Assembly (NCBI GenBank): GCA_949841595.1
Contig: CATKZB010000001.1
Span: 170,418 to 234,417, forward strand
Direction: 5' to 3'
Length of the DNA: 64,000 nucleotides
Source of the DNA: an uncultured Christensenella sp.
GTDB lineage: Bacteria; Bacillota; Clostridia; Christensenellales; UBA1242
This document shows, piece by piece, positions 18,375-60,612 of the stretch (the stretch's first letter is position 1; the number at the start of each line of letters is the position of its first letter). The notes under the pieces were generated by a model. It saw nothing but the letters and a program-made list of their open reading frames with translations. It did not search any database and was not told the origin of the DNA. The translations under genes were made by a program, and so were the position numbers.

Positions 18375-20648
18375 ATGAATTTTTACCAAATAATCACACA
18401 TAATAGGGAAATGAAGAAATTTGTCAAAATATGTCTAATTTCATTTGCATTGCTTGTCACTTTCACTTTTGTTTTCAGTGGAACATTTGTGACAATCAAT
18501 TATATCAAATATCAATCAATCCCACTTGATGCAGAAGCATTGAGCAATCCTTCACTTTCAATTGAGATTTACACCAAAGAGAACAAACCTATGAAGGAAG
18601 AAAATCAATTTAATGGCGATTTTTGCAAACTTGAAGACTTAAATTCATATACAAAACAAGCATTTTTGTCAATTGAGGACAAAGAGTTTTACAACCACAA
18701 TGGACTCAACAAAAAGCGTATTGCCAAAGCATTCCTCACAAACTTGAAAACAATGAGTTTGAAAGAAGGCGCATCAACTATAAGCCAACAACTTATCAAA
18801 AACACTCATCTTTCCAACGAAAAAACTTTTGAAAGAAAACTCAAAGAAATGGCACTTACAAGAAAACTTGAAAAAAACTACACAAAAGATGAGATTTTGG
18901 AATGCTATTTAAACGTGATTTTCTTCGGAAACAACTGTTATGGGCTTGAAAATGCTTCAAAATATTATTTCAACAAAAATGCAAAAGACTTAACTTTGTC
19001 TGAAAGTTGCACTTTGGCAGGAATAATCAAATCCCCAGCAAAATATTCCCCAATTTCAAATTATGAAAATTGTTTGAAAAGAAGAAATCTGATTTTAAGC
19101 GAAATGGAAAAAGATGGACATATTTCTGTCGATGAAAAAATAACGGCACAAAATCAGCCAATAAAGCTTGATATAACACCAAGAAGTGTCAACAAAATAA
19201 ACACTTACTCTCAAGCCAGCATTGATGAAGCGTCAAAGATTTTAGGACTTCCGGCTAAGCAATTGGCAATTGGTGGTTACAAAATTCACACCTATTGCAA
19301 TGAAGAAAAACAAGAAAATTTAAAACAGGCTCTTGAAAAAAATCAACTTGAAGACATTGACAGTGCAGGAATCGTCATTGATGCCGACACGTATGGAGTT
19401 TCAGCTTATTATGGAAACAGCAGTTATAAACTTATGGACATAAAACGTCAACCTGCTTCTTGCTTAAAACCAATCATGGTCTATGCTCCTGCATTAAATG
19501 AAGATGTGATTTCCCCTGCAACACAAATTTTGGACGAACCTATCAAAATAGGAAATTACGAACCCAGCAATGTAAACAAAAAATTTGTGGGCTATGTTTC
19601 GGCTACTGAAGCAGTCAAAAATTCAATGAACATACCAGCAATCAAAGTTCTAAGTTACATTGGCATTGACACTGGCAAACAATATGCTGAAAAAATGGGA
19701 ATATCTTTTGATGAAAAAGATGACAGTTATTCTCTTGCTTTGGGAGGAATGACCTATGGCGTCAATTTAAAAGATTTGACAAGTGCCTACACAACTTTTG
19801 CAAACAAAGGTGAATATGACAAAACAACTTTCATTCAATACATAACTGACAAAAACAATAAACTCGTCTACATTCACCGTCCACAACCTAGAATGGTGCT
19901 AAGAGAAGACAGCTCTTATCTTATGACAAACATTCTTCAAGAAGCTGCAAAAACAGGGACTGCACGAAAATTATCAGATATTTCAAACACAGAAATTGCT
20001 TCAAAAACCGGAACAGTCGGCAAAAAAGATGGAAACACAGACGCATATAACATCACCTACACCCCTGAAGAAGTTGTTGGCGTTTGGTATGGAGATTTAA
20101 CAAATCAACCTGCACCTATCACAAGTGGAAATCAACCAACAGAAGTTGTGAAAAGTTATATCTCATCTCAAGAATATGAAACAAAATCTTTTGACATACC
20201 TTCTTCTGTCACAACAGTAAAAATAGATGCTCTTGAAAAGGAAGAAAATCACAGACTTGTGCTTGCCAGTCCATATGCACCAGAAAGATATACAGAAACT
20301 TTCCTTTTCTCAAGATTTAACACTCCAACAGAAGTTTCACAAAACTTTGTTGAAAAACCACAAATTTCAGCCGAATGTAAAACAGAAAACAACCAAATTG
20401 TGATTTCTCTTCGCCCACAAAGACATCTGGAATATCAAATTTACAAAGATAACATCCCTTATCAAACAATAAAAGACAAACAAGAATATTTGACCATTCG
20501 TTTGCCTTTCAATGAAAAAGAAACCAACATCAAAATAACAGCAAACTATGCAAACTTAGCAAATTCGGATTTTGAAACTGAAAAAAACTTTACTTTGTCA
20601 AACACAAAAACAACAAACCAATCAAACAGTGACAAATGGTATATCTAA
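18375..20648 (+). CDS. Class A penicillin-binding protein (glycosyltransferase plus transpeptidase)
   Basis: GT51 motifs AFLSIEDKEFYNHNGLN and GASTISQQL. Transpeptidase motifs SCLK (SxxK) and KTGT. The likely true start is ATG 18411 (MKKFVKICLISF signal anchor). Confidence 0.88.
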   Translation: MNFYQIITHNREMKKFVKICLISFALLVTFTFVFSGTFVTINYIKYQSIPLDAEALSNPSLSIEIYTKENKPMKEENQFNGDFCKLEDLNSYTKQAFLSIEDKEFYNHNGLNKKRIAKAFLTNLKTMSLKEGASTISQQLIKNTHLSNEKTFERKLKEMALTRKLEKNYTKDEILECYLNVIFFGNNCYGLENASKYYFNKNAKDLTLSESCTLAGIIKSPAKYSPISNYENCLKRRNLILSEMEKDGHISVDEKITAQNQPIKLDITPRSVNKINTYSQASIDEASKILGLPAKQLAIGGYKIHTYCNEEKQENLKQALEKNQLEDIDSAGIVIDADTYGVSAYYGNSSYKLMDIKRQPASCLKPIMVYAPALNEDVISPATQILDEPIKIGNYEPSNVNKKFVGYVSATEAVKNSMNIPAIKVLSYIGIDTGKQYAEKMGISFDEKDDSYSLALGGMTYGVNLKDLTSAYTTFANKGEYDKTTFIQYITDKNNKLVYIHRPQPRMVLREDSSYLMTNILQEAAKTGTARKLSDISNTEIASKTGTVGKKDGNTDAYNITYTPEEVVGVWYGDLTNQPAPITSGNQPTEVVKSYISSQEYETKSFDIPSSVTTVKIDALEKEENHRLVLASPYAPERYTETFLFSRFNTPTEVSQNFVEKPQISAECKTENNQIVISLRPQRHLEYQIYKDNIPYQTIKDKQEYLTIRLPFNEKETNIKITANYANLANSDFETEKNFTLSNTKTTNQSNSDKWYI

Positions 20649-25800: not shown

Positions 25801-28596
25801 TTAGTCATATTGATCACCAAACAACTCTCTAAATTCTTCTTCAGTGGTATAAACAGTTCTTCCTTTGACTCCATCTGCACTTGAAATATATCCAGCAGCT
25901 TCCATTTGATCAATGATCCTTGCAGCTCTTGGATAACCAATTGCAAATCTACGTCTGATCATTGTTGCAGAGGCTTGCTTGCATTCTATTGAAGCTTTCA
26001 ATGCTTGTGGCAACAATGGATCCATTTCATTGTTATAGCCTGCCCCTCCACCATTGTTGTTACCACGATTTGGATTGTTTATTTGGTCTTCAATATCTTT
26101 ATCAAAAATAGGTTTGTTGTTGTCACGAGTGTAATCAACAATATTGTTGATTTCGTTTGTGGAAATAAAGCAACCTTGAACACGCATAGGATCTTTCGCA
26201 CCATTTGGGAAATAAAGCATGTCACCCTTACCCAAAAGTTTTTCTGCACCCACTCTATCCAAAATTGTCATAGAATCAACTGCACTTGTAACGGCAAATG
26301 AAATTCTTGAAGGGAAATTTGATTTGATAAGACCTGTGATGACATCAACTGAAGGTCTTTGAGTAGCCAATATCAAATGAATTCCAGCAGCACGTGCTTT
26401 TTGGGCAAGACGACAAACTTTTTCTTCAACTTCTTTCTTTCCTGTCATCATAAGGTCAGCAAGTTCATCCACAATAATCACAATAAAAGGCATTTTTTGC
26501 ACTTTTCCGGACAAAACATCTGGTGTTTGATTATATTCATCAATATTTTTCACTCTTGCATAACCCAAAGTTTCAAAACGCTTTTCCATTTCAGTAACTG
26601 CCCAAGCAAGAGTGTTGATTGCTTTTTGAGTGTCACACACAATCTGTGGCATAATCAAATGAGGCAAAGCTTCATAAGAAGAAAACTCAACACGTTTTGG
26701 GTCAATTAAAACAATTCTGACATCTTCTGGTGAAGCTTTATACATAATGCTTAAAATGATTGAGTTTAAGCACACACTCTTTCCTGAACCTGTTGAGCCT
26801 GCCACCAAAAGATGAGTAAGTTTTTGCATGTTGCAGCAAATTGTGTTTCCAGAAATGTCTTTTCCAAGTGCAAAAGTCAGTGGAGAAGAACCATTGACAA
26901 ATTCTTTTGAATTTAAGACATCTTTCAAACTTATTGTGGCGATAGATGTGTTTGGAACTTCAATTCCCACCACACTCTTTCCAGGAACAGGAGCTTCTAT
27001 ACGAATAGAGCCTTCTGCTGCAAGTGACAGAGCAATGTCATCTACCCTGTTTTTGATTTTACTCACTGAAATTCCCTGTGGCATTTCAAGTTCATATCTT
27101 GTGACAGCAGGTCCGACAACAACTCCCTGAACTTTGGCAGGAACGCCAAAAGTTTCAAGTGTGTTTTCCAAAAGCACTCTCTTTGTTGCAACATCTTCAC
27201 TTAAAGTTGAAAGGTCAACACTTTTTGTTGTGATGTAATCAATTGGAGGTTTTTCATATTCATAAGGCTCTCTAACTTCCGGTTGTTCTGGTTCAATCTG
27301 CATTTGTTCACGAGAAGCCATACCATTACGCATTGAAAGTCTTTCAAAATCACGATTGAAACTGTTTCTTGCATCCAAATCTTCTTGATTTGTCACTCTG
27401 TCATTTCGGTCAAAACTTGTTCTTTCAAAAGAACGTCTTTCAAAACTTCCACTGTTATTTCTTTCAGGAAGTCTGTTTAACAAGTTTTCTTCGGCAGACT
27501 CTTCCACAACATCTTCAAACATCTCTGGATTTTCATTCTTTTCTTCTTGTATCGCATTTCTCAAAATGTCATCAGCTTGTTCAACAAGCTCTTCACTTTT
27601 GACTTCTGGCAATGTTCTCTTAAAATATGCAGATGTGTCTGGCTTGAATTCGTCTTCATAATAAACTTGAGATGGATTTATGTCGTCTTCTTTAAGAGCT
27701 TGAATATTTGAATTTATCTCTTGCTTTTCAGGGACTTGTTCTTTTCTGACATCTTTGAAATATTCGTCTATGTCAATTTGTGGCGGCGTCAAAATAAGTT
27801 CTTTCAAACTTTTTGGTTTCTCTGATTCTTTCTTTTGTTGGGTTGGTTTAACAGGATTTGTTCCCCCATATTCATATGCGTTGTTTCTTTTTTTGTCCAA
27901 TCCCAAAATCTGTCTTGCAGTAAGAGGTTTGTTTTCCACCTTTTGCTCTTCTTTAAGATTTCCATTCAACACAACATTGACTTCTTCTGCAGGTTCTTTA
28001 ACAACAACTTCTTCTTTTACAATATTGTTTGATGCTTTTGCTTTTTTATCTTTAATTTGAACAGAAACTGGTTCTGTTGTTTCTTTGTTTTTCTTCATGA
28101 AATTTAGACTGTCAATCAAAAGAGCAACACAAATCACAAGTGCAAGTGCAAAGATGATATAAGCACCGTATATGTTTGCCATATACAAAAAGATTGTTGT
28201 GAAAATTCCTATGAAAAAGCCTCCTGCTGTCCATTTGTCATGATAGTTTTTTGCCATATAATCCCAAAACGACAATCCACCTTTATTTCCGACAATCGCC
28301 AATTGCAAAATGCAAAGAGCAAAAAACACCGACAAAATCAAACATATGCAATATTTTTTCGACATCACATATCTTCTGTTGTTTAAGAGTGCAAGCCCCA
28401 CAACAAACAAAACAATGCAGAGAGGAAAACCAAACACTCCCAAAACACCCAATAAAAAGGTTTGAATTGGAGCAACAATTCCTGTCAAAAACAAGAAAAT
28501 AACCGAAGCAACGCCAATCAGAGAAAATCCCACTATTTTTTTGACATTTGGATTTTTATCTTTTTTCTTCTTTGAATTAAGTTTGTAAATCGCCAT
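25801..28596 (-). CDS. ftsK: DNA translocase FtsK/SpoIIIE
   Basis: N-terminal TM helices, a long low-complexity linker, a motor domain with LLVAGSTGSGKSV and ...IVDELADLMM, and a C-terminal gamma winged helix. Start trimmed to ATG 28596, which has a GGGGGA SD. Confidence 0.93.
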   Translation of the reverse strand: MAIYKLNSKKKKDKNPNVKKIVGFSLIGVASVIFLFLTGIVAPIQTFLLGVLGVFGFPLCIVLFVVGLALLNNRRYVMSKKYCICLILSVFFALCILQLAIVGNKGGLSFWDYMAKNYHDKWTAGGFFIGIFTTIFLYMANIYGAYIIFALALVICVALLIDSLNFMKKNKETTEPVSVQIKDKKAKASNNIVKEEVVVKEPAEEVNVVLNGNLKEEQKVENKPLTARQILGLDKKRNNAYEYGGTNPVKPTQQKKESEKPKSLKELILTPPQIDIDEYFKDVRKEQVPEKQEINSNIQALKEDDINPSQVYYEDEFKPDTSAYFKRTLPEVKSEELVEQADDILRNAIQEEKNENPEMFEDVVEESAEENLLNRLPERNNSGSFERRSFERTSFDRNDRVTNQEDLDARNSFNRDFERLSMRNGMASREQMQIEPEQPEVREPYEYEKPPIDYITTKSVDLSTLSEDVATKRVLLENTLETFGVPAKVQGVVVGPAVTRYELEMPQGISVSKIKNRVDDIALSLAAEGSIRIEAPVPGKSVVGIEVPNTSIATISLKDVLNSKEFVNGSSPLTFALGKDISGNTICCNMQKLTHLLVAGSTGSGKSVCLNSIILSIMYKASPEDVRIVLIDPKRVEFSSYEALPHLIMPQIVCDTQKAINTLAWAVTEMEKRFETLGYARVKNIDEYNQTPDVLSGKVQKMPFIVIIVDELADLMMTGKKEVEEKVCRLAQKARAAGIHLILATQRPSVDVITGLIKSNFPSRISFAVTSAVDSMTILDRVGAEKLLGKGDMLYFPNGAKDPMRVQGCFISTNEINNIVDYTRDNNKPIFDKDIEDQINNPNRGNNNGGGAGYNNEMDPLLPQALKASIECKQASATMIRRRFAIGYPRAARIIDQMEAAGYISSADGVKGRTVYTTEEEFRELFGDQYD

Positions 28597-28756
28597 TACA
28601 TCCCCCAAGAATAAGGTCAAAGGGCAACAAGAAAATATTTGCCCAATATATCTGTTTATATTGTATCACTAATCTTCCCTGTTTCCCAAACAGATTTAAC
28701 AAAAAACAAACATAATTTTGTCGTTTAATATTTTTAAATATTAATATAATTTTGTG

Positions 28757-37452: not shown

Positions 37453-38673
37453 TTAAAGAGTTATTGTAATACTTTTTAAAGCAGAACATTCTCCACTTTG
37501 AATTTCTTTATAGTTAAATGTCACTTCTTTGCCTTGTTTCAACTGATAAATATTATCCAAAAGAGTTATTTTGTCTAATATTTCTATTAGACCATCATCA
37601 TAGCTCACAGACACAATAACACTGCCAGCTTTGATAATTTGATCATCATAAGAAAAATCATCAAACAAAAACAAACCCGACATCTCTGAAGTGGAGAAAT
37701 AAGTTATATTTTCGTTATAAGGATGCCACGCATTATTAAAATAGAATTTATCTTGATTGGTTGTGCTTGTTTCTGAACAATCCAAATAATAACTAAGCTC
37801 TATTTGGTCAAAACCAATCAGGTTTTCTTTAATTGGATTTGTGTAATATTTGTCAGCATAATAATTGTTTACCACATCATCAATAAAGTCTTTTGCACCT
37901 TCAGCATTCATAACAAAATAATAACCATATTCAAGTTCTTCTGTTATAGTCAATTCATAAGAAAATCCGAGCAAATTCGCTTGTCTATCAAACACTGCAC
38001 CACCATTGTAAGCAGTTGCATCCATGTCAAGATCAACAACAAAACCATCTTCATGAACAAAATCTATCGCCTTTGTTCCGTCAACTGTTTTTGAAACTCC
38101 CAGTGCATAATCAGCGCCATAAATAGTGCCAATCCAAATCTTTTTGTCAGAAACAGGATTAGAAACCGAAATAACTCGCTCATCTTCCCTTGAAGCAAGA
38201 AAATTTTCATTGACATTTACAAAAGGAATCTTGATTTCTTCCCCTTCTTTTGCAACACTTTCGCACTTTAAAATCGCAAGATTATAATCCTTCTCAGCAA
38301 AAAGCAACTTTCCTGAATAAATCCTTCCTGAAGTTGTAAGAATCTTGATGACAGTGTCTTCTTTACAATCCCTAAATTCACTGTAAGGTGCAACAACGAA
38401 ACCATCTTGCCTTATATTGACACCAACAACACTTTTTTCTTCTTCATCAAAATTTTCGTTCTGAATTTTAAAATTTATTTCGACAGTGGCTTCAGCATAC
38501 ATATCTCCAACTGCCACATCTGAAGAAAATGGCCAAAAGCTCAATTTTAATGAAATGTTATATGGAGAGATGAAATAAAAATAAACCACTGTAAAAAGAT
38601 AGCACAAAATAACTGCTATCACAGTAAACAGTATTATCCAAATGATTTTAGAATTATTTTTTTTCTCTTCCAT
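37453..38673 (-). CDS. Membrane-anchored trypsin-fold (HtrA/S1C-like) protein, probably non-catalytic
   Basis: N-terminal TM helix. GFVVAPYSEF...GRIYSGKLLFAEKDYNLAILK...DATAYNGGAVFDRQANLLGFS aligns by eye with HtrA segments (IVTNNHVV, DLAVLKI, GNSGGAL). His, Asp and Ser are replaced by Ser, Asn and Asn. Confidence 0.55.
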   Translation of the reverse strand: MEEKKNNSKIIWIILFTVIAVILCYLFTVVYFYFISPYNISLKLSFWPFSSDVAVGDMYAEATVEINFKIQNENFDEEEKSVVGVNIRQDGFVVAPYSEFRDCKEDTVIKILTTSGRIYSGKLLFAEKDYNLAILKCESVAKEGEEIKIPFVNVNENFLASREDERVISVSNPVSDKKIWIGTIYGADYALGVSKTVDGTKAIDFVHEDGFVVDLDMDATAYNGGAVFDRQANLLGFSYELTITEELEYGYYFVMNAEGAKDFIDDVVNNYYADKYYTNPIKENLIGFDQIELSYYLDCSETSTTNQDKFYFNNAWHPYNENITYFSTSEMSGLFLFDDFSYDDQIIKAGSVIVSVSYDDGLIEILDKITLLDNIYQLKQGKEVTFNYKEIQSGECSALKSITITL

Positions 38674-40451: not shown

Positions 40452-40814
40452 CTATTTTTTGAATACTTTTATAAATTCCACAACTGCCAAACAACACAAG
40501 AATCCACCAAAAATCATTTTTAAAATTTTGGAAGGCAAAAATGACATCAAAACTGCTCCCAAAACTGAGAAAATAACTCCAAAAAAAATTATCCAAAAAA
40601 GGTTTTTTGTCACAATATATCCATTGCGATAATGGATGTAAATTGAAAATATTGCCATAACCAAAAAACTTAATAAATTAAGTCCTTGAGAAAGTTTTTG
40701 ATCAAAGCCCAAAAATATAGTCAAAATAGGGATAAGAAGCGTTCCACCTCCCATGCCTAAACCACCGAAAATTCCTGACAAAAAGCCAGCTAGCATATAA
40801 AAAAAATAAATCAT
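40452..40814 (-). CDS. Half-size TauE/SafE (TSUP) family membrane protein
   Basis: 120 aa with about 4 TM helices. LAGFLSGIFGGLGMGGGTLLIPIL is the family N-terminal motif. Start trimmed to ATG 40814, which has a GGGAG SD. Confidence 0.7.
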   Translation of the reverse strand: MIYFFYMLAGFLSGIFGGLGMGGGTLLIPILTIFLGFDQKLSQGLNLLSFLVMAIFSIYIHYRNGYIVTKNLFWIIFFGVIFSVLGAVLMSFLPSKILKMIFGGFLCCLAVVEFIKVFKK

Positions 40815-40884
40815 TGTTTTCTCCCGAAAATTTATTATTATTTTCTTCAAAAAACAAAAAATTATCTAAGAAAAAAATTTATTT

Positions 40885-41118
40885 TTAATATGCTTCATTC
40901 ATCAAAATTTTTAATAAAAATTCTATTAACAAAATTGAATGTTTTTTGACAATTTCCATATAAAAAATTTCCAAATCAAGAAACATATTTCGTTGATCTT
41001 TGCTTAAATTTTGAACAAATTGTTGTTCAAGATTTTCAAATTCTTGTGGCTGTTCAACTTTTTCTTTTGACTCACTTTCTTCAAAAATTTTGTAAAACAT
41101 TTCTGCAACAGTTTTCAC
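40885..41118 (-). CDS. Hypothetical 77-aa helical protein
   Basis: GTG start with AAGGAG 8 nt upstream. No motif recognised. Confidence 0.45.
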   Translation of the reverse strand: MKTVAEMFYKIFEESESKEKVEQPQEFENLEQQFVQNLSKDQRNMFLDLEIFYMEIVKKHSILLIEFLLKILMNEAY

Positions 41119-41335: not shown

Positions 41336-41740
41336 TTAAAACAGCAATCTTATGCCACCTGCCAGCATGACAAAAACAAAAATTATTCTGACAATTTTTT
41401 CGGGCAAAAATTTGAGTGCAAATGAGCCTACAATTCCACCCAAAAGCACACCTGTTCCCACAGTTAAAAAAGGAATTGTTTCAAGGTTTCCACTCAAAAG
41501 ATAAATGACTGCACTTATGAAGGAAATTGGAAGAATAACCACGATTGCTGTCGCATGAGAATATTTGTTGGGTAAATGTAGAACCTTTTCTAGTAAAGGA
41601 ACGCAAATCATTCCCCCTCCTCCACCAAAAAAACCATTGATAAATCCAATCAATGCACCACACAGTGCCAAAATAAATTTCTTCTTTGCAGGCAACTTGT
41701 TTTCTTTCTCTTTTTTCTTGGTTGTTTTCTTTGTTTTCAT
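41336..41740 (-). CDS. Half-size TauE/SafE (TSUP) family membrane protein
   Basis: 134 aa with a basic N-terminus, then GALIGFINGFFGGGGGMICVPLL and about 4 TM helices. Confidence 0.7.
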   Translation of the reverse strand: MKTKKTTKKKEKENKLPAKKKFILALCGALIGFINGFFGGGGGMICVPLLEKVLHLPNKYSHATAIVVILPISFISAVIYLLSGNLETIPFLTVGTGVLLGGIVGSFALKFLPEKIVRIIFVFVMLAGGIRLLF

Positions 41741-41772: not shown

Positions 41773-41801
41773 TTGATTATTTATATTAAATGTATTATAA
41801 T
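41773..41801 (+). promoter_or_regulatory. Sigma-A-type promoter candidate for the 1281-aa gene
   Basis: TTGATT-17 nt-TATAAT. The ATG lies 33 nt downstream of the -10 element, with an AAAGGGA SD. Confidence 0.5.
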
Positions 41802-41834
41802 AAGAAAGTTAAATTTATATAAAGGGATTCAGAT

Positions 41835-44800
41835 ATGAAAAAACTTAAAAAATTCAAAAGCAAAATATTGATGTTTATCTTTGCACTTGTGTTGCCTTTG
41901 TCTGCAACTTCAGTAGTTTATACAGTAAGTGAAGTTAAGAATGCAAATGCAGATAATGCTGCATCAAATTATTATTCTGGGTATATGAAAGAAGTTTCAC
42001 TTTCAAACAACAACTTCAATTCTGGTTCTTCAACCTATTCAATCAGCACATCTCTTTCTGGTTGGACTGGCCTTATGAAAGACAGAAAGACCACTGCTGG
42101 AATAATCAACACTGGAAACACCTTTCAAAACTACATGACAGGCACTTATCGCCTTTCAAACAACCCTCTTGCCAAAGCAAACGACAAGAATATTTTGATG
42201 ATAAATTCTAAGACTGCAGATTCAAATGATTATTCAACTGCAAGACAAGGATATAAATCAAATATAGTGAATTTGGAAGCAAATTCATTCTATTCTTTTC
42301 AAGTCTCTTTCAAGAGCGACACAAATTACAATTCTTACACAACTTATGTTCAACACGGAACAGTTGATGAAGATTTAAATTTGACAAAATCAGCTTTTGA
42401 AGAAAAGAAAGATGGAAAAATCAAAAGTTTTGGAGACCATATTTCATTCACATACAAAAGCAAAACTTATTATCTCCACAAAGAACTGATTGATGGTGCA
42501 AACACAACACAAAATCTCACAGATGTATCTTTCTTCTATGAAGATGATGAATATGTTGGTTTGATGTATAATGACTCTCCTGTTTATGTTGCCAAATCAG
42601 ATGTTGAAAAAGTGGAAGTCAATGAAGAAACACAATACAATATAGCTTCTGGCAAAAAAACATACACTTGCAACATTGAGTATGACACAGCAAATTCTAG
42701 ATATAATGTGAAAGCTGGAACAGCTTATTACACAACAAAAACAGAATATTCTTCACTAAACGACTATGTTTTTGGCTCAATTTATTTGTCAGGTCTTAAA
42801 GACAGTGAAGGAAATGCAGTAAAAGCAGATTATGTTCAAGTGACATCAAAAGAATGGGTAACTTTCTATTTCTTTGTTGCAACAGGAAACCAAGCCCAAA
42901 GTGTGACATTGGATCTTTGGCTTGGAACAAACCAAACTGGCCATGACAGCAGTGGCGTTGTGTTCTTTGACGATTGCCATGTTTATCAATACAGCGAAAA
43001 CACTTTCTGGAAAACATACAAATCTTATTTCGGAAAAAATTATACTCAAGAAATAACAACTTCAAGTGGCACAACAACTCAAGTTTTTGATTGCACAAAC
43101 TTGGTTGATCTTAGAAATGCAACAAATATTGAATACCCAACCCACAACTTTGACTTTGAAGAAGGAATCTTCAATAATGATGGTTCTGCTCTTAAAAACT
43201 GGACAAAGAGTGGAAATGGAAATGCTCAAATTTTTGACTCAAGAAATCCTCAAGCTTTTAAAAGCGCAACAGGTGGATATGATTTTGTAGGCTCAAATCT
43301 CTCATGTGAAGTAAACATCAATGGAGAAGCAATATCAATCACCCCAAACAACTATGTCTTAGGTTTATGGTCAAAAAATGGATATGTTAAAGTAAAATCA
43401 AATGCTGTTAGCATAGATGCAAATCAAGTATGCAAAATCAAAGCAACCTACAAAATTTCTGAAATAACCAGTGGAAATGTATATATGTTTGTAGAAGAAA
43501 ATGACAACATTCTGACTTCTTACAACCTTACAAAAGATCAATATACACTTGCAGAAGAAGCTTCAAGCACTGCAGTAACAACAAATGGATCAAGCAGTTT
43601 CTCAAACAGCTATGGAACAATAGAATTCTATGTTAAAGGTGGAAATCTCTATAATTCTTCCGTTAACATCTCACTTGGACTTGGCAAAAGCAATGAAACT
43701 GCAACTGGTTGTGTTGTGTTTGACGATATTACTATAGAAAAAACAGCATCATCAGATTTTGATAATGCATCAAACAAACTTGAACTTGACACATACACAT
43801 CATCCCTTTCAATTGCAAATGGAAACTTTAACAAAGTAACTTCAGAACAAGACAGCACCTATCCTCTTGCCCCTCAAAACTGGAAGATTGAAAAAGGAAC
43901 TGGCTTCACCTTTGGTGGCGTTGTCAACACAGAAGCCAAAGAATATGCAAAATATGTTGAAAAATACAATCAACTAAAAGCTGATAATGTGGATGATTTG
44001 AAAAACAACTATTATTGGGCAAGCTATGCAAATCCAAAAAACAGCTACAACTCTACTTCCGAACCTGACAATGTTATGATGCTTGCAAACATAACAAGTG
44101 CTTGGCAAAAATTGACTTCTGACAATTTCACACTTTCTGCAAACAGCACAAACAAGCTTACATTTAAATATAAAACTTACAACTCAAACAATGGAATTAT
44201 TGCGACCTTGTATAACAAAGATGGCGTAAAACTTTTTGAATCACAAAAACTAAATTCAAATGGACAGTGGAATGATTATGAAATTTATCTCAAATCATTC
44301 TCTGGAGCAAGTGAAGTTTATTTAACAATAGATTACGGCACTGAAACAGACAAAGCTGAAGGTTTTGCTTATTTCGACAATTTTGATATAGAATCAATTG
44401 ATGGAAGCGTCTTTGAAAACAAATCTAGCACTTCTGAAGGAAATGGAGACGCCTTTGCTGTTGTAGATATGTCAGATTTCTATCTAAAATTGCCTACAAA
44501 CAACATCACTAATGACTTAACAACTTCTAATACTCCTGCATTTACTGGAGCTTACGGCAGTGGAAACTCAAGCATTGGTGGTATTATCAAAAGTGAAGGT
44601 CTTGGAGAAATCTTTAAGTTGGATGAAGAAAACAAAAACGTTTTCTACATCACAAATCATGGTGTTGGCTCTTACACACTCCAATCAAATTTCAACTTGG
44701 ATTTGGAAGCAAACAAATACTATGAATTGTCATTCAAACTTAAAACAAATTTCAACTACACAAATGCTGATGTGAGTTTGGATAAAGATAAAACATACAA

Positions 44801-45680
44801 TTATGGTGCAACCTTTGGTTTGACAGGTTTTGATTTTATGAAACAACTTGTAGCAAACGAAGAAACTTATCAGACTTACACAATGTATTTCAACCCTAGT
44901 GAAGCTGCTTCTGCAAAACTCTATTTAGCACTTGTAAGTGACAGCATTGAAACTACAGGTTCTATGGCAATCTATGACATTGCATTTGCTGAAGTTGAAG
45001 AATCAGTTTACACAAGTGCTGTTGAAGCTTGTGCTGCAACAGATTATGACATCAACAAAGACAAAATCATGATTTCAAAAGCTGAAGGCAAAACTGATGA
45101 CGACAACGACGACGATAACAATGGTGACAACACAGACACCACCCCAAGCACAAATGGAGATCTCAATTGGTCAATTTTGATTGCATCAATAATCACTGGC
45201 GCTGCAATTGTAATAGCATTAATTGGCTGGGCAATGAGCAAAGTTAAAATCAAAAAAATAGAAAGAAAGAGAAAAGAATCTTATGACAGAAAAGAAAGCT
45301 TGCATGTTGATGCCATAAAGATCAAAGCAAGAAAACAAAGAGATTCTGACATCGAAGCTGTAAAAACTGACATTGAAAAGTTCCAAAAAGAACTTGACAA
45401 AATGGAAAAAGAACACAAACAAAAAGTGCTTACTCTCAGAGAAAAAGATAAAGGCACAGTTTCAAAAGAAACAGACAGAGAATTTAAGCAATTTGCAAAG
45501 AAGAGAACTGTTATTGCAGAAAAGATTGACTCTTTAAACAAACAAATTGAAGAAATAAATTCACCTGAATATCTTTTGAATCTTGAAAGAAAAATTTTCG
45601 CTCAAGATGAAATGAAACAAAAAGAACTTTCAAAGGTTTCAAAAAAATCTAAAGATGAAAAAGATTCTTCTAAAAAATAA
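41835..45680 (+). CDS. Giant type-I membrane surface protein with CBM_4_9-like jelly-roll repeats and a basic coiled-coil cytoplasmic tail
   Basis: Signal peptide (MKKLKKFKSKILMFIFALVLPLSA). At least four modules open with NxNF(N/E)xG...W and close with hydrophobic-FDD/FDN motifs (VVFFDDCHVYQY, CVVFDDITIEK, FAYFDNFDIESI, MAIYDIAFAEV). These are followed by a D/N-rich linker, the TM WSILIASIITGAAIVIALIGWAM, and a ~150-aa K/E-rich tail. Confidence 0.8.
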   Translation: MKKLKKFKSKILMFIFALVLPLSATSVVYTVSEVKNANADNAASNYYSGYMKEVSLSNNNFNSGSSTYSISTSLSGWTGLMKDRKTTAGIINTGNTFQNYMTGTYRLSNNPLAKANDKNILMINSKTADSNDYSTARQGYKSNIVNLEANSFYSFQVSFKSDTNYNSYTTYVQHGTVDEDLNLTKSAFEEKKDGKIKSFGDHISFTYKSKTYYLHKELIDGANTTQNLTDVSFFYEDDEYVGLMYNDSPVYVAKSDVEKVEVNEETQYNIASGKKTYTCNIEYDTANSRYNVKAGTAYYTTKTEYSSLNDYVFGSIYLSGLKDSEGNAVKADYVQVTSKEWVTFYFFVATGNQAQSVTLDLWLGTNQTGHDSSGVVFFDDCHVYQYSENTFWKTYKSYFGKNYTQEITTSSGTTTQVFDCTNLVDLRNATNIEYPTHNFDFEEGIFNNDGSALKNWTKSGNGNAQIFDSRNPQAFKSATGGYDFVGSNLSCEVNINGEAISITPNNYVLGLWSKNGYVKVKSNAVSIDANQVCKIKATYKISEITSGNVYMFVEENDNILTSYNLTKDQYTLAEEASSTAVTTNGSSSFSNSYGTIEFYVKGGNLYNSSVNISLGLGKSNETATGCVVFDDITIEKTASSDFDNASNKLELDTYTSSLSIANGNFNKVTSEQDSTYPLAPQNWKIEKGTGFTFGGVVNTEAKEYAKYVEKYNQLKADNVDDLKNNYYWASYANPKNSYNSTSEPDNVMMLANITSAWQKLTSDNFTLSANSTNKLTFKYKTYNSNNGIIATLYNKDGVKLFESQKLNSNGQWNDYEIYLKSFSGASEVYLTIDYGTETDKAEGFAYFDNFDIESIDGSVFENKSSTSEGNGDAFAVVDMSDFYLKLPTNNITNDLTTSNTPAFTGAYGSGNSSIGGIIKSEGLGEIFKLDEENKNVFYITNHGVGSYTLQSNFNLDLEANKYYELSFKLKTNFNYTNADVSLDKDKTYNYGATFGLTGFDFMKQLVANEETYQTYTMYFNPSEAASAKLYLALVSDSIETTGSMAIYDIAFAEVEESVYTSAVEACAATDYDINKDKIMISKAEGKTDDDNDDDNNGDNTDTTPSTNGDLNWSILIASIITGAAIVIALIGWAMSKVKIKKIERKRKESYDRKESLHVDAIKIKARKQRDSDIEAVKTDIEKFQKELDKMEKEHKQKVLTLREKDKGTVSKETDREFKQFAKKRTVIAEKIDSLNKQIEEINSPEYLLNLERKIFAQDEMKQKELSKVSKKSKDEKDSSKK

Positions 45681-45683
45681 AAT

Positions 45684-45718
45684 GAAAAGAGATGTTTGAA
45701 AAAACATCTCTTTTTTAT
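45684..45718. terminator. Bidirectional terminator shared by convergent genes
   Basis: AAGAGATGTTT-gaaa-AAACATCTCTT, flanked by A-runs and T-runs. Confidence 0.75.
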
Positions 45719-45735: not shown

Positions 45736-46254
45736 TTAAAAATCATCTTCGTCATCATCGTCCATATCATCATCTTCTTCGTCGTCATCAAAATCTAAAT
45801 CATCGTCATCTTCTTCATCAAAATCAGTTTCAATATCTTCATCATCAAGTTCATCCAACCCATCGTCATCAAGTCTGTCATCAAAGCCGATTCCCGAATC
45901 AAGATCATCATCGTCCAAAACTTCATCGTCAATATCAGAAGTCACTGTCACCATGTCTCCCGTTTCTTCATCATCGTAAATCACTTCTTCTTCGTCACGA
46001 TTTACATATTCTTCCCAATCGGAAGAAATTTCACCATCTTCTGTTTGGTGTTCTTTCAAACAAGTAGAACACATGATCTCATCTGGTTGAATATAATTAG
46101 TCTTGCAAATTGGGCAAAGTTCCAAATCTAAGTCACTTACATAATCTTCTTTCTTCGCAGAAAGTTCTGCTTTGCACACACTGCAAAGTTTATCTTTCTT
46201 TTCAATATAATTAAGTTCACATCTAGGGCATCTAACATAAACAGGTTTTTTCAT
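45736..46254 (-). CDS. Double zinc-ribbon protein with an extremely acidic C-terminal tail
   Basis: CPRC...CSVC and CPIC...CSTC pairs in the first ~70 aa. By my count 57 of the last 94 residues are D or E. The His-rich plus-strand ORF 45696..46067 is its antisense shadow. Confidence 0.7.
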   Translation of the reverse strand: MKKPVYVRCPRCELNYIEKKDKLCSVCKAELSAKKEDYVSDLDLELCPICKTNYIQPDEIMCSTCLKEHQTEDGEISSDWEEYVNRDEEEVIYDDEETGDMVTVTSDIDDEVLDDDDLDSGIGFDDRLDDDGLDELDDEDIETDFDEEDDDDLDFDDDEEDDDMDDDDEDDF

Positions 46255-56129: not shown

Positions 56130-59100
56130 TTAGCACCAATAGAAAACTTTTAATGTCCATCTGCTATTTACCTGTAGCCATATATCTTTATCTAAGTTGT
56201 TTATGTTTGCTCCATAATAATTATTATCAGAATTGCTCGAAGCTCGATAATAGCAATTTTCAGATGTTACATAATCACTATCACCACATGCCAAATCATG
56301 TGTAAAATCGGGATTAGCTGTTATCTGACATTCAGCATAACATTGGCTAAATTCGGTAGATGACAAAACTTCTCCTACAATACCTGCAACTTCACTTAAA
56401 TCTTCACAAATCATGTTTGTTTTTGAAGACACAGCAAAGAATTTACAGTCTTTTGCAAGTCCCACTATACCACCAAAACGTGATCTATATTTTTGACTGT
56501 TTTTAATAGACTTACCTTGCAATTCAACAACATTTTCTGCATAATCAAAACTTCCGTTGTCTTCATCATTATAAATATTATGATAAGTTATTTTATTCGT
56601 TTGCAATGTGCAATTGAAGGTGTGAACATAAGAGAATTTAGTATTTTCTGCCTCTGCAACAACTGCCCCCACATTTCCAAATCCAGTGAACTTACAGTCT
56701 TTTATTGTCAAGTTTTTGATAGTTGCGCCGTTGGTATAACCAAACAAACCAATGTCAGAGATTTTGTCTCCATCATTGTCTCCACCAATAAATTTAAGAT
56801 TTGAAATCATATGGTGATTTCCGTCATAAACACCTTTGAATGGGTGAGCTTCGCTTCCGATTGGATTGAAGATTTTGCCAAACATATTAATATCTGCAGT
56901 TTGCCTAATTAAACAACTTTCAAAAGTTTCGCCACCATTAACCATTTGACTTAACTTTATCAAATCATCAGCATTGTTAATTTCATAAACACCATTCACA
57001 GCAGTTAAATTTCCAGAAACGTTTGTATAATCTTTTAAATATTTAGCAGTTATTGTTACATCTGAAAGTGAGCCATTATTAGCAAATTTGTATTCTTTGT
57101 TTAATGTCAGCAACTTATCGCCATCACTACCACACACGTAAAGACCTATGTATCTATATCCCTCTGGTACATTTTCTGATTCTTTTACAGTTACTGTAGC
57201 AAAATAGTATGGTTTATCGTAATTTTTATAATCACACTCAAATGTTGGCTTATATCCACCAACACTCGACTCCAAGTTTACTGAATAATTACTTACACTA
57301 AAGAAATAATATAGATCAATTGTGTTATTCCAATCTGAAATATTATTTCCTTTAATTTCTGATACATATTCGGTCAATAGATCTCCCGACCAAACTATAG
57401 ATTCAATATTTTGTCCATTTTGTTTTCTCCAATCATTAAGATAGCCTTTAAAGTCTGCACTTAAATCAGTAAATTCAAAATATCCTTGATTTGCTTTTCT
57501 TTCAACTTTAATATCTCTATTATCAACTGTAAATTTAATAGCAGTTGGAGTTACAGTTCCACCTAAATGGTTTTCATCAGATTTAAAGTCATATTTGCTA
57601 TCAAATTTATCAACATATGTATAGATATTGACAGTATATTCAATAGCTTCTCTTGAAATCTGCACAGTAAATTCATTGACATCTATTAATCTAAATTCTA
57701 ACAATTTATCAAAAGGATCAACTTGTTTATCGTCTCCTATTGAAATAATCCATCTAAAATCAGGATTTGTTGAATCTCCAAAATTTACACACTCAGGTTG
57801 TAATCCAACCTTTAACTCAGAATCACCATCCGACAAAGTCACATTTTCTTCATTGGATTTTAAATTTGTAATTTTAAAACTATATTTATATCCCAATTCA
57901 AATTTGTTTTCAAAGTCGACAGTTTTGTGCATATCATTTGTAACTAGAAAATCAGTCCATGAATCAAAACCACTCCCAGTACCATCCCAAAAAGAAACGT
58001 GTATTTTATAATTTACTTTCTTAAACAAGAAAACCAATTGACCAGCTTCACCATCTTGATATTCATATGAAAAAGTATCATAAAAATAAACTCCTAAAGG
58101 TTCTTCTCTAGGTTTAAAACCATGACGAAGTTTAGCTTCCGTTGCACTATCTTCATATGCAATACCTGCAAATTGATAACCAAATTTTGGCGTAACTTTA
58201 TATTTAATATTATCTTTATAATATATTTCATCGATTGAACAATCATTTATTTCCACTGTTCCAAAATCAGAACTAGAACCGTCAATCAACTTCGTTTTAA
58301 TATCTAAAGAAATTGATTTGTTTTCTAATGTAAACCTTACTACAAATCCATTAACTTGTTTTGTGAAACTAAGATACAAACTATCAGCTTGTGGCACGAC
58401 ACCACCAAAAGATTGAAAGCTAGTGTTATATGATTTACTAATTTCTGCAGAAATATATTTAAGCTTTTCTGTGTTGTAAGTTAGATTTAACAGCTGTTTG
58501 TATCTCAGTTCAATTCTATAGTTAACTCCTCTTAAAAAGTAAATATTTTTAGAGTCAAGGTTTTCAAATTTAGATTTCCATTCTATCTTACCTTTATTAT
58601 CACAAAATCTAACAGATGTCTTTATATTAAATTTTTCTTTTTCTTCTTCAGATAATGTTATGGTTCTATTTGGAAGTTTAACTTGGATAGTATTTATATC
58701 AGCGTCTGAAACGGCAGAACTAGGGACTAACAAACTATTGCCACCTTCTGTCTGTGAAATTTCTTTTGAAACTGCCGAGCTATTATCAAAATAAAAATTT
58801 ACGATTGGAGACATAAACCATGTCTTTTCAGTGCCTTTATGGGTTTCTGGATATGTGTCACCATCTTCGTCAGTATATTCACTTTCATACATCTTATGAG
58901 TGCCAATTTCATTTGACCATGTCAAAACTCCTCTATAAGAAGAATTGTTATTGTAGTTCCATCGCCCCAAATACCAATTGTTATAGTTGTTTAAAAAACT
59001 ATACTCAATTAAATCACCTCTCCATGTTTTATAGCCAAAATGTTGAAAAGAAACCGATACAGATTTTGAATCGTGATTTAAACATTTGTCAATTGGTTTG

Positions 59101-60578
59101 TTATAATCTGTGAAATAATTATTTTTCAAAACATTATTAACAAGGTCACTTGAATCTGTTGTTATTCTGCCAATTATTCTTCCATAAAGGGAATTTGTTT
59201 CTCCTTGCATTTTTCCAGCATTAATGCAATTTGCAACAAGATAGTGAGAATAGTATTCTGTCCAAGAACCTATACCTAAAACTCCCATATGCCATTCAGA
59301 GCCACCAATTTTACCTACAATGCCACCAACATTATTTCCTTGCACATTGATTGTGGCATAATTTAAACATCTGAATATAAGACTATGGTTTGTAACTGAT
59401 CCAACAATTCCTCCGACATTTTCAATTGATGCATTTGAATTTGTTATATTTCCGTAATTTACACAATCATTGATAATTAAAGGGTTGCTATCATTAGTTG
59501 CAGCTGTGCCTATTATTCCTCCTATTGAAGATGTACTATTTAAATTTTTATATTGGACTATTTCAATATCCCCAAAATTAGAACATCCAGTGATAGTTTT
59601 GGTTTTATAATCCATTGCATTTGAAACTAACCCAGCCACATAAAAATGGTTAACTCTCGATATTTTTATATCTGAATAATTATGTGAATTCGAAATGTTT
59701 AAACTGTTTCTTGAAAGACCAATCAACCCACCAAAATAAGCAGTGTCCCAAATTTCAAATCTTACATCGCTTCCAGTGCTATAAAACCTAAATTCATCAC
59801 CATAATACGCGCATGAATATACTGTACAGTCAGATGCAATTCCTAAAATTCCACCAGCATATATGTAATCTAAATTCCAATTGTCCCAAGCTGCTGCACG
59901 AATAATCACATAAGAATAGCAATAACGCATTGTTGTAGACTTTGCATTCCCCACAAAACTTCCAATATGCAATTCATCTGTTCCGTTACCTTCATTAGAA
60001 TATTTAAAAAACTCATAACATCCATCTATTATAAGTGAGTCAATCAAAGCATTTTCTGTTTTTCCAAACAAACCATATGCATTATTATAACGATTTTGGG
60101 AAAGATCTGTTGCTGTTTTATGCATGAAAATCCCAGAAATAGTATGGCTATTTCCATAAAAGCTGCCAGTAAAAGAAAAATCATTTCGCCCTGAGCGACT
60201 TCCTATTGGAGTCCAATAATGAGAAGATAAATCTATATCTCTTTGCAAATAAACACTAGCATTAGAATAATATGCATCTCCAATCTTGCTTCCGTTATTA
60301 ACACACCTTGCAAATTCTGACAATTCTTCAGCAGTCACAATATCGACTCTCATATACGATCCAGAAACACTAATTTGATTTCCCACTTCCAAATTGGCAC
60401 CATAATCACTCCAGTCTCCACTTGGAGTGGCTTTGACTTCTGTTTCTTGTTGATCTTGATCTGAACCTTGATTTTGAAAAATATCTGATGAATTGTCAAC
60501 AAAAAACGCTGTGCCACAAACAAACGAAAGTGACAAGAAAAAAGCCATGATAATTGAAAAAATTATCTTTTTCTTCAT
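56130..60578 (-). CDS. Giant secreted GLUG-motif beta-helix protein (~1482 aa)
   Basis: Signal peptide MKKKIIFSIIMAFFLSLSFVCGTA. Many GLUG-type repeats (IGGIIGTA, VGGIVGSV, VGGIVGKI, FGGLIGLS, AGGILGIA, FGGIVGLA, VAGIVGEV) lie in N- and C-terminal modules, each preceded by ...PIG...F.G.f.GN.H.ISG/N... The central ~700 aa match no family. Start trimmed to ATG 60578. Confidence 0.8.
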   Translation of the reverse strand: MKKKIIFSIIMAFFLSLSFVCGTAFFVDNSSDIFQNQGSDQDQQETEVKATPSGDWSDYGANLEVGNQISVSGSYMRVDIVTAEELSEFARCVNNGSKIGDAYYSNASVYLQRDIDLSSHYWTPIGSRSGRNDFSFTGSFYGNSHTISGIFMHKTATDLSQNRYNNAYGLFGKTENALIDSLIIDGCYEFFKYSNEGNGTDELHIGSFVGNAKSTTMRYCYSYVIIRAAAWDNWNLDYIYAGGILGIASDCTVYSCAYYGDEFRFYSTGSDVRFEIWDTAYFGGLIGLSRNSLNISNSHNYSDIKISRVNHFYVAGLVSNAMDYKTKTITGCSNFGDIEIVQYKNLNSTSSIGGIIGTAATNDSNPLIINDCVNYGNITNSNASIENVGGIVGSVTNHSLIFRCLNYATINVQGNNVGGIVGKIGGSEWHMGVLGIGSWTEYYSHYLVANCINAGKMQGETNSLYGRIIGRITTDSSDLVNNVLKNNYFTDYNKPIDKCLNHDSKSVSVSFQHFGYKTWRGDLIEYSFLNNYNNWYLGRWNYNNNSSYRGVLTWSNEIGTHKMYESEYTDEDGDTYPETHKGTEKTWFMSPIVNFYFDNSSAVSKEISQTEGGNSLLVPSSAVSDADINTIQVKLPNRTITLSEEEKEKFNIKTSVRFCDNKGKIEWKSKFENLDSKNIYFLRGVNYRIELRYKQLLNLTYNTEKLKYISAEISKSYNTSFQSFGGVVPQADSLYLSFTKQVNGFVVRFTLENKSISLDIKTKLIDGSSSDFGTVEINDCSIDEIYYKDNIKYKVTPKFGYQFAGIAYEDSATEAKLRHGFKPREEPLGVYFYDTFSYEYQDGEAGQLVFLFKKVNYKIHVSFWDGTGSGFDSWTDFLVTNDMHKTVDFENKFELGYKYSFKITNLKSNEENVTLSDGDSELKVGLQPECVNFGDSTNPDFRWIISIGDDKQVDPFDKLLEFRLIDVNEFTVQISREAIEYTVNIYTYVDKFDSKYDFKSDENHLGGTVTPTAIKFTVDNRDIKVERKANQGYFEFTDLSADFKGYLNDWRKQNGQNIESIVWSGDLLTEYVSEIKGNNISDWNNTIDLYYFFSVSNYSVNLESSVGGYKPTFECDYKNYDKPYYFATVTVKESENVPEGYRYIGLYVCGSDGDKLLTLNKEYKFANNGSLSDVTITAKYLKDYTNVSGNLTAVNGVYEINNADDLIKLSQMVNGGETFESCLIRQTADINMFGKIFNPIGSEAHPFKGVYDGNHHMISNLKFIGGDNDGDKISDIGLFGYTNGATIKNLTIKDCKFTGFGNVGAVVAEAENTKFSYVHTFNCTLQTNKITYHNIYNDEDNGSFDYAENVVELQGKSIKNSQKYRSRFGGIVGLAKDCKFFAVSSKTNMICEDLSEVAGIVGEVLSSTEFSQCYAECQITANPDFTHDLACGDSDYVTSENCYYRASSNSDNNYYGANINNLDKDIWLQVNSRWTLKVFYWC

Positions 60579-60584
60579 GTTTTT

Positions 60585-60612
60585 ATTATATACAAATTTA
60601 GACAAAAATCAA
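60585..60612 (-). promoter_or_regulatory. Promoter candidate abutting the GLUG-gene ATG (leaderless candidate)
   Basis: Minus strand reads TTGATT-16 nt-TATAAT-aaaaac-ATG. No SD is present. Confidence 0.4.

Follow-up and report, generated by a model that had tools for sequence, protein, structure and literature searches.

Why would a bacterium whose lineage has very small genomes devote 3.8 kb to one surface protein? That is the question raised by a gene in a 64,000-nucleotide stretch of DNA, here called the window, from an uncultured Christensenella sp. (NCBI GenBank assembly GCA_949841595.1, contig CATKZB010000001.1, positions 170,418 to 234,417, forward strand). The gene encodes a protein of 1281 amino acids (aa), hereafter the surface protein, and a preliminary description of it, made from the sequence alone, had seen jelly rolls resembling carbohydrate-binding modules (CBMs), a membrane anchor and a basic tail inside the cell. 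What is strongly predicted, on structural modelling, is a secreted, membrane-anchored protein with four modules of CBM fold, a flexible stalk and a three-helix cytoplasmic domain of about 130 aa. The function that we favour, with the case for it and the case against it about evenly balanced, is that of a non-catalytic adhesin or receptor for glycans or cell surfaces, with its cytoplasmic domain serving for docking. The open reading frame (ORF) is as first proposed, and its parts, by position in the window and residue in the protein, are as follows.

41835..45680, plus strand: coding sequence of the 1281-aa surface protein, ATG start, from the ORF list
41835..41951, plus strand: predicted signal peptide, aa 1-39, with a lysine-rich n-region, a hydrophobic core at aa 9-32 and A37-N-A39 (hydropathy and alignment)
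41955..43031, plus strand: module 1, aa 41-399, predicted CBM-like β-jelly roll, opening with NNNFNSGSS...GW and closing with VVFFDD (AlphaFold2, per-block predicted local distance difference test score, pLDDT, mostly 85-96)
42345..42734, plus strand: variable β-rich insertion inside module 1, aa 171-300, about 130 aa (β strands in AlphaFold2)
43125..43769, plus strand: module 2, aa 431-645, opening with HNFDFEEG...NW and closing with VVFDD (AlphaFold2 and hhalign)
43776..44432, plus strand: module 3, aa 648-866, opening with NGNFNKV...NW and closing with FAYFDN (AlphaFold2 and hhalign)
44442..45032, plus strand: module 4, aa 870-1066, closing with IYDIAF (AlphaFold2, pLDDT >90)
45033..45158, plus strand: predicted acidic stalk rich in D, N and T, aa 1067-1108, disordered and linking module 4 to the membrane (pLDDT <50)
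45162..45242, plus strand: predicted single transmembrane helix, aa 1110-1136 (hydropathy up to 2.49; helix in AlphaFold2)
45243..45677, plus strand: predicted cytoplasmic tail, aa 1137-1281, with basic KVKIKKIERKRK, Y1150-D-R and three long helices

Four modules of one fold

How many modules are there? A BLASTP comparison of the surface protein with itself found no repeats, and as their likeness is visible only when profile is compared with profile, the duplication that gave rise to them is ancient. For the hhalign comparison, module sub-alignments were cut from a 72-sequence family alignment (A1), with M1 taken as aa 41-170 plus 301-399, M2 as 431-645, M3 as 648-866 and M4 as 870-1066. All pairs match, at probabilities of 97.7-99.5% and E values of 2e-12 to 4e-22 (M1 against M2, M3 and M4: 9e-17, 4e-22 and 2e-12), and thus there are exactly four anciently duplicated modules. 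The insertion at aa 171-300 is not homologous to them (hhalign probability at most 0.4% to each) and is missing from a distant branch of proteins of about 1100 aa, in which its coverage is 0.00 (P0096-P0120, except P0098). Of the ‘four or more’ modules originally described, then, the homologous jelly rolls stand and the ‘or more’ gives way to exactly four plus an unrelated β insertion. The motifs then pointed to were all located, the opening ones at aa 58-66 (NNNFNSGSS), 437-444 (HNFDFEEG) and 662-668 (NGNFNKV), and the closing ones at 375-380 (VVFFDD), 627-631 (VVFDD), 844-849 (FAYFDN) and 1046-1051 (IYDIAF). Module 3 also holds an inserted helix, at aa 701-716. On an entropy-based scale of conservation module 1 is the best conserved of the ectodomain (0.60-0.63), with modules M2-M4 at 0.52-0.56 and the module 1 insertion at 0.49.

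The fold is the point at which the evidence is strongest. Two AlphaFold2 models were made from a 59-row alignment, model 1 of aa 30-1140 (mean pLDDT 87.2, predicted template-modelling score, pTM, 0.69), where pLDDT falls below 50 only at the N-terminus and in the acidic stalk, and model 2 of aa 880-1281 (mean pLDDT 86.9, pTM 0.53). When model 2 was submitted to Foldseek the output was dominated by module 4, whose best match is the xylanase module CBM4-2 (2y64_A, E 6.1e-7, template-modelling score, TM-score, 0.63; over 2y64/1k42, E 6e-7 to 1.5e-6 and TM-score 0.62-0.63), followed by CBM61 2xon (0.62), MAM 5l73 (0.59), CBM4 1gu3 (0.54) and CBM22 4xup (0.48), and which also matches a porphyran-binding CBM and CBM11. 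The whole ectodomain gave 166 matches in the PDB at E <=1e-3, led by proteins with several jelly rolls: Cry1 protoxins, reelin repeats, GH101 enzymes, a CBM22 tandem, SGBP-B, Vip3 and the CBM70 hyaluronan module. The global TM-score of these is only about 0.1, and so the likeness lies in the domains and not in their arrangement. In the viral library, phage tail and host-recognition proteins with CenC-type CBMs were matched. A fold of the CBM4/CBM22/CBM61/MAM jelly-roll superfamily (galactose-binding-domain-like) is strongly predicted by the models for all four modules.

Does sequence tell the same story? Pfam gave no family for the whole surface protein at E <=1 and no CBM family for any module at E <=10; segment by segment there were only sub-threshold matches, to MAM (E 0.012, module 3), HtaA (0.029) and Sec10_N (0.004, in the tail). 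Scattered sub-threshold matches in 39 relatives include MAM, DUF642, HpiC1-like and CBM_4_9, which we take to be jelly-roll or CBM-like folds, CBM_4_9 being met in only one of the 39 (E 0.0061). NCBIfam returned noise only, and searches of PDB sequences, whether the query was the single sequence or a 72-sequence profile, returned nothing, or transmembrane-segment and coiled-coil noise at E >=0.025. The profile scan that the preliminary description had proposed thus produced no CBM_4_9 or CBM22 match above the gathering score. With fold matches and no match to any sequence model, the modules are CBM-like at the level of fold only and lie outside the described families; the earlier idea of CBM-like jelly rolls is borne out for the fold (AlphaFold2, Foldseek) and not for membership of CBM_4_9 or CBM22. 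As no catalytic or other Pfam domain was found in the surface protein, an enzyme function is rejected for want of a catalytic domain.

Across the membrane

Which way round does the protein sit? By hydropathy just two segments are hydrophobic, one at aa 9-32 and the other at aa 1110-1137. Seven lysines precede the first, and A37 and A39, each at least 90% conserved among 10 close homologues (alignment A5), suggest cleavage at A37-N-A39. The stretch before the second is acidic (11 D, 6 N, 6 T and 0 R among the 48 residues of aa 1061-1108, with DDDNDDDNNGDN at aa 1088-1099) and that right after it, KVKIKKIERKRK, is basic. With the basic juxtamembrane cluster placed inside and the acidic stalk outside, by the positive-inside rule, the prediction is of a type I protein that exposes some 1070 aa outside and has a tail of about 145 aa, in all probability cytoplasmic. 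The type I topology first proposed, from signal peptide with an A-x-A site through acidic linker to one transmembrane helix, is therefore also the one predicted here. The acidic stalk is the least conserved segment of the protein (0.43) and the transmembrane helix the most conserved (0.69); a C-terminal transmembrane segment is present in 249 of 253 family sequences.

Anchoring by other means was also considered. The sole match to an LPXTG regular expression is LPLSA, within the signal peptide, and Pfam gave no SLH, choline-binding, LysM or CWB2 match in the surface protein, in agreement with what had been said of LPXTG, SLH and choline-binding anchors at the outset. Beyond the C-terminal hydrophobic helix there are about 145 aa, in contrast to the short charged stop of sortase substrates. 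Sortase, SLH or choline anchoring is rejected, there being no LPXTG and no such Pfam domain.

The tail is 144-146 aa long, by choice of the end of the transmembrane helix, and has 44 K+R and 31 D+E if 146 aa are counted, or 34 K, 9 R, 19 E and 12 D if 144 are. The net charge of +13 comes largely from the juxtamembrane cluster. Model 2 has helices at aa 1152-1205, 1211-1241 and 1244-1280 (pLDDT 89-97), preceded by a short disordered basic stretch next to the transmembrane helix and broken at DKGTVSKETD and SPEY. Heptad scoring is moderate only, and on the model the tail is more consistent with a folded helical domain, into which the three helices would pack, than with a single continuous coiled coil. 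What had been described as a basic coiled-coil cytoplasmic tail is accordingly to be amended: there is a conserved K/E-rich tail of about 145 aa, only moderately basic and in three helices. In the 72-sequence alignment Y1150 is invariant and D1151, R1152, H1194, K1195, F1217, K1218 and E1251 are at least 90% conserved; YDR is present in the tail of 218 of the 253 family sequences, the median tail length of which is 148 aa. Among full-length homologues 37-65% identical overall, tail identity is 49-75%, against 25-51% for the module 1 insertion. As tail conservation (0.60) equals that of the best ectodomain module, module 1, the tail is a functional domain.

A large family in a lineage with small genomes

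How widespread is such a protein? A word-indexed search brought up 131 relatives, each either unnamed or called ‘hypothetical’, of which about 95 are full-length homologues at 37-89% identity; one, P0001 (NCBI assembly GCA_948647925.1), is 100% identical to the protein in the window. The source names of relatives include Candidatus Caccovivens and metagenome-assembled genomes (MAGs) of Clostridia or Clostridiales. A profile search of 1.84 billion representatives gave 1378 proteins at E <=1e-3, and at least 685 clusters of 50% identity at E <=1e-30; the best 150 representatives are of 632-1383 aa and nearly all match near end to end (profile positions 1-1099). End-to-end homology of the family, with its four jelly rolls, transmembrane helix and YDR tail, thus held up, the tail included. 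In a scan of one genome per GTDB species, for which a 10-sequence alignment was the query, the gene was at one locus in each of 48 MAGs, with rabbit and deer among the sources named in the records. No paralogue was found within the window. In this lineage, whose genomes are very small, it is a core gene with a single locus. The family is without a Pfam or NCBIfam model and, as judged from the sequences retrieved, occurs in uncultured gut Clostridia including UBA1242.

Something is known of that lineage. Ca. Caccovivens has been assigned to GTDB family UBA1242, order Christensenellales (PMC8035907). The names of the homologues and the synteny suggest that the window, too, comes from this family. 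UBA1242 genomes are mostly <1 Mb and lack pathways for making amino acids, nucleotides and lipids, together with upper glycolysis and standard transporters, sporulation genes being kept; obligate symbionts or parasites have been proposed, with the suggestion that unknown membrane proteins may mediate cell contact (PMC12306168). In one chicken study UBA1242-type Clostridia had a negative association with body weight (PMC13155120). In the literature on Caccovivens and UBA1242 no mention of the surface protein was found. The jelly-roll fold of the domains and the existence of non-catalytic surface proteins with several CBMs are already known; to our knowledge, the full combination of four modules, C-terminal transmembrane helix and YDR plus three-helix cytoplasmic domain is undescribed in the libraries searched.

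An adhesin or receptor?

What might four such modules on a membrane anchor do? They would bind a glycan or surface polymer of a partner, be it another microbe, host mucus or dietary particles, so that the surface protein would act as an adhesin or receptor for the cell. The conserved tail may dock to a cytoplasmic partner or oligomerise the protein, and so fix its position or report occupancy. Counted in favour are the whole-ectodomain matches to proteins of glycan recognition (the CBM22 tandem, SGBP-B, GH101 with its CBM, and CBM70). Since this is a core gene in a tiny-genome lineage proposed to live off other cells, attachment is the most plausible reason to keep 3.8 kb of coding sequence.

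Several considerations weigh on the other side. The jelly rolls of MAM, of reelin repeats and of Cry protoxins also serve protein-protein contacts or packing, and by analogy glycan binding is not guaranteed here. The residues conserved in the ectodomain across the family are N, F and W at the openings, D at the closings, Gly and hydrophobic positions, and to judge from their kind they look structural and not like a binding cleft. Strict single-copy synteny over deep divergence, with the upstream gene order partly kept even at 25% identity, fits a housekeeping envelope component better than a variable adhesin. The ligand and the tail partner are putative only, and the partner-dependent lifestyle is a published inference from MAGs, not an observation.

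A bolder form of the adhesin or receptor reading can be put. The surface protein would be the principal partner-cell docking receptor of obligately partner-dependent UBA1242 and relatives, its novel three-helix domain coupling attachment to the cytoskeleton, the division apparatus or a regulator. This we consider unlikely; were it true, there would be a Gram-positive analogue of the outside-in linkage of integrin or cytadhesin type, built from CBM-like domains. Even short of that there are grounds for attention. UBA1242-type Clostridia, which are uncultured, occur widely in the guts of humans and animals (PMC12306168), and the surface protein offers a handle on their cell contact or metabolite supply. 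It could be used as a candidate attachment factor, as a bait for a partner or ligand, as a surface antigen by which to sort or enrich the cells, and as founding member of a family of hundreds of 50%-identity clusters that has no Pfam model in the copy searched.

A structural coat? Gene order and rates of evolution

Could the protein instead be part of the envelope proper? On this proposal the modules would attach to one another or to polymers of the cell's own wall, giving a coat like a surface layer (S-layer), tied by the tail to the morphogenetic machinery. Of the competing explanations it survives best, and we still regard it as unlikely. In its favour are the status of the gene as a single-locus core gene in kept order beside genes of MreB and MinD/ParA type across the family, the high conservation of transmembrane helix and tail, and the pTM of 0.69 for a model of 1111 residues, which hints at a defined arrangement of the modules and not at beads on a string. 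However, no SLH, CWB2, LysM or other wall-binding or S-layer signature was found with Pfam, and no lattice-forming homologue in the Foldseek searches. Two further points concern the surroundings of the gene, the flanking signals of which are these.

41773..41801, plus strand: sigma-70-like promoter candidate TTGATT-17-TATAAT, 10 of 12 matches in a consensus scan (consensus match only)
45685..45714, no strand assigned: hairpin AAAAGAGATGTTT-GAAA-AAACATCTCTTTT between A and T runs (terminator scan and reading of the sequence)

With these, and with an AAGGG ribosome-binding site at 41822-41826, 8 nt 5′ of the ATG, the gene looks, on its sequence, like a monocistronic unit with its own promoter-like site and terminator hairpin. 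The hairpin has a perfect 13-bp stem, stands between the surface-protein gene and the convergent gene downstream, and is likely a bidirectional terminator common to both. Upstream the collinear order is ParA/MinD, MreB, a trypsin-like protein, Ppx/GppA, ferredoxin and two TauE halves, then the surface-protein gene, and downstream a zinc-ribbon protein, TsaB, TsaE, PAP2, a methyltransferase and RNase J. More than 15 collinear genes are kept in three other genomes where the surface protein is 51%, 37% and 32% identical. The proximity to mreB on which the structural proposal leans is therefore that of one long collinear block, within which the surface-protein gene looks like a transcription unit of its own.

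The other point is one of rates. Where the surface protein is 51/37/32% identical, the figures for MreB, Ppx, TauE, TsaB, TsaE and RNase J are 63-90% in the closer two of the genomes and 44-73% in the remotest, with the methyltransferase and an unnamed 307-aa protein evolving at intermediate rates. That the ectodomain evolves much faster than its neighbours speaks against a structural coat; on these comparisons, evolution faster than that of most neighbours would be typical of exposed surface proteins. If the protein were only a structural coat protein, it would still be the first described envelope component specific to the lineage.

Other genes of the block deserve mention. The trypsin-like protein, encoded between mreB and ppx at 37453..38673 (minus strand), is membrane-anchored and 406 aa long (Trypsin_2, borderline score), and at 40/35/28% identity is the sole neighbour evolving as fast as the surface protein. 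The gene for the TauE/SafE anion exporter is split into two of half size, at 40452..40850 and 41336..41740 (both minus strand), and a 77-aa ORF (40885..41118) separates the two. The 132-aa product corresponds to positions 2-109 of the Pfam profile and the 134-aa product to positions 118-237. The split is also present in L002, L003 and L004, with a single TauE of 239 aa in the distant relative L055, and from this distribution it looks like a stable two-piece transporter and not a pseudogene.

Does the organism have a wall? The window encodes a class A penicillin-binding protein (transglycosylase and transpeptidase) at 18375..20648 (plus strand), as well as an FtsK/SpoIIIE translocase at 25801..28620 (minus strand). 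Because of the former, the organism evidently makes peptidoglycan despite its reduced genome, as far as gene content can tell. This is a point for a structural coat and bears also on the distance that the surface protein must reach. At 56130..60605 (minus strand), adjoining gyrA, is a second very large protein, of 1491 aa, with no Pfam match, an N-terminal signal or transmembrane segment at aa 11-37 and a composition rich in S, N, G, D and Y; on these features it may be another lineage-specific surface protein.

A sensor? The zinc-ribbon neighbour

The gene on the far side of the hairpin, and a different one in its place in a distant branch of the family, are relevant to a further proposal.

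45736..46254, minus strand: convergent neighbour, 172 aa, a pair of CxxC...CxxC zinc ribbons followed by some 90 aa of acidic tail (sub-threshold Pfam DZR/DZR_2)
L050 5890..7014, L053 9595..10692, L055 9283..10404, minus strand: neighbour of 365-374 aa in the distant branch (the L050 copy seen as an ORF)

The proposal is of a transmembrane sensor, in which binding of an external ligand is relayed through the membrane to the tail, which releases or recruits a regulator, much as with RsgI and σI, only inverted, and perhaps with the zinc-ribbon protein as the partner. We consider it improbable. For it speak a cytoplasmic domain that is conserved, predicted to be folded and endowed with invariant residues, the convergent orientation of the zinc-ribbon gene and its use of the same terminator (of 42 loci with enough flank, 33 have a homologue within 2.5 kb, downstream and on the other strand), and complementary charges, +13 net in the one tail and 56 D/E in 92 aa in the other. 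Against it, neither Pfam nor NCBIfam found an RsgI_N, HAMP, kinase, anti-sigma or other signalling domain; genes for sigma factors or response regulators are absent within ±10 kb; and the positive charge of the tail is mostly an ordinary juxtamembrane stop-transfer cluster. The likeness to RsgI to which attention had been drawn falters on the missing RsgI_N, on the opposite orientation and on the N-terminus being a signal peptide. Among the genes called there is no sigma-factor family within ±10 kb, nor within ±6 kb in the three other genomes, and with no RsgI_N domain and no sigma-factor gene nearby, membership of the RsgI group is rejected.

What of the zinc-ribbon protein itself? Its N-terminal domain is 73-87% identical across genome loci, far above the surface protein, and a search for its homologues gave 486 matches, the 120 listed being all at least 66% identical and unnamed. 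The acidic tail ends in DDF in all four orthologues compared. An acidic tail with a terminal Phe resembles the C-terminal tips of SSB and T7 gp2.5, and on that analogy this one may be a DNA-mimic or hub-binding tail. With a zinc-ribbon domain far more conserved than the tail of the surface protein, co-evolution of the two is not suggested.

In the distant branch (about 25% identity) the surface protein keeps its transmembrane helix, YDR and helical tail, yet the gene downstream differs: the convergent neighbour at the locus is a conserved protein of 365-374 aa in place of the zinc-ribbon gene, with no Pfam match recorded for its L053 and L055 copies, the two loci with gene calls. The contig of L050 is labelled Spirochaetales; as the genes upstream in its relatives (ParA, MreB, Ppx, ferredoxin, TauE) are ordered much as at the clostridial loci, the label may reflect mis-binning. 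The electrostatic pairing once conjectured between the two neighbours finds no specific support, their adjacency being part of the general collinearity, their rates very different and the neighbour in the distant branch another (where a zinc-ribbon gene could lie elsewhere). Co-occurrence at the locus, looked at as the preliminary description had advised, holds for the 33 loci and not beside the distant members of the family.

Very improbable, finally, is nutrient capture, in which a non-catalytic surface glycan-binding protein would hold polysaccharide for degradation or uptake in the manner of Bacteroides surface glycan-binding proteins (SGBPs) or scaffoldin CBMs: SGBP-B (7kwb) and CBMs of xylanases, agarases and arabinanases are among the structural matches, but no glycoside hydrolases or sugar transporters lie in the neighbourhood of the gene, here or in three other genomes, and UBA1242 is reported to be without standard sugar transporters and upper glycolysis (PMC12306168).

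Comparison with known systems

With which known proteins is the surface protein to be compared? For its modules the nearest are the type-B modules of CBM4, CBM_4_9 and CBM22, such as CBM4-2 of R. marinus Xyn10A (1K42/2Y64) and the CBM22 tandem of Paenibacillus Xyn10C (4XUP). They have the same β-jelly roll (TM-score 0.6 over about 170 residues, E about 1e-6), a like opening (N-G-x-F-x...W), an acidic closing strand and tandem occurrence. However, sequence identity is about 11%, the window protein has no Pfam match, and its modules are not appended to an enzyme, there being four copies on a membrane anchor, with ligand binding putative. Consecutive CBM-like jelly rolls are also a feature of the C-terminal domains of Cry1 protoxins and of reelin repeats, the top whole-chain Foldseek matches (E 1e-12 to 1e-15), but with a global TM-score of about 0.1 the arrangement differs, and the biology is unrelated. 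Bacteroides SGBP-B (7KWB) and the phage tail and host-recognition proteins with CenC-type CBMs are, as structural matches, likewise non-catalytic, multi-domain and surface-exposed. SGBPs, though, are lipid-anchored outer-membrane proteins of polysaccharide utilisation loci and the phage proteins are parts of virions, and neither has a transmembrane helix with a cytoplasmic domain.

Among membrane-spanning proteins, the RsgI anti-σI factors of Clostridium thermocellum are, like the surface protein, single-pass with an external CBM-type module and a conserved cytoplasmic domain; the surface protein is predicted to be N-out and, after cleavage, C-in, and has four modules to their one. For mode of working the closest analogy is with the Mycoplasma cytadhesins P1 and P140-P110, where a large ectodomain is followed by a C-terminal transmembrane helix and then by a cytoplasmic tail that probably connects with structures inside the cell, and where the organisms are also genome-reduced, dependent on a host or partner, and related to the Bacillota. 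The folds are unrelated and there is no sequence similarity, and the UBA1242 lineage, unlike Mycoplasma, has peptidoglycan and no known attachment organelle.

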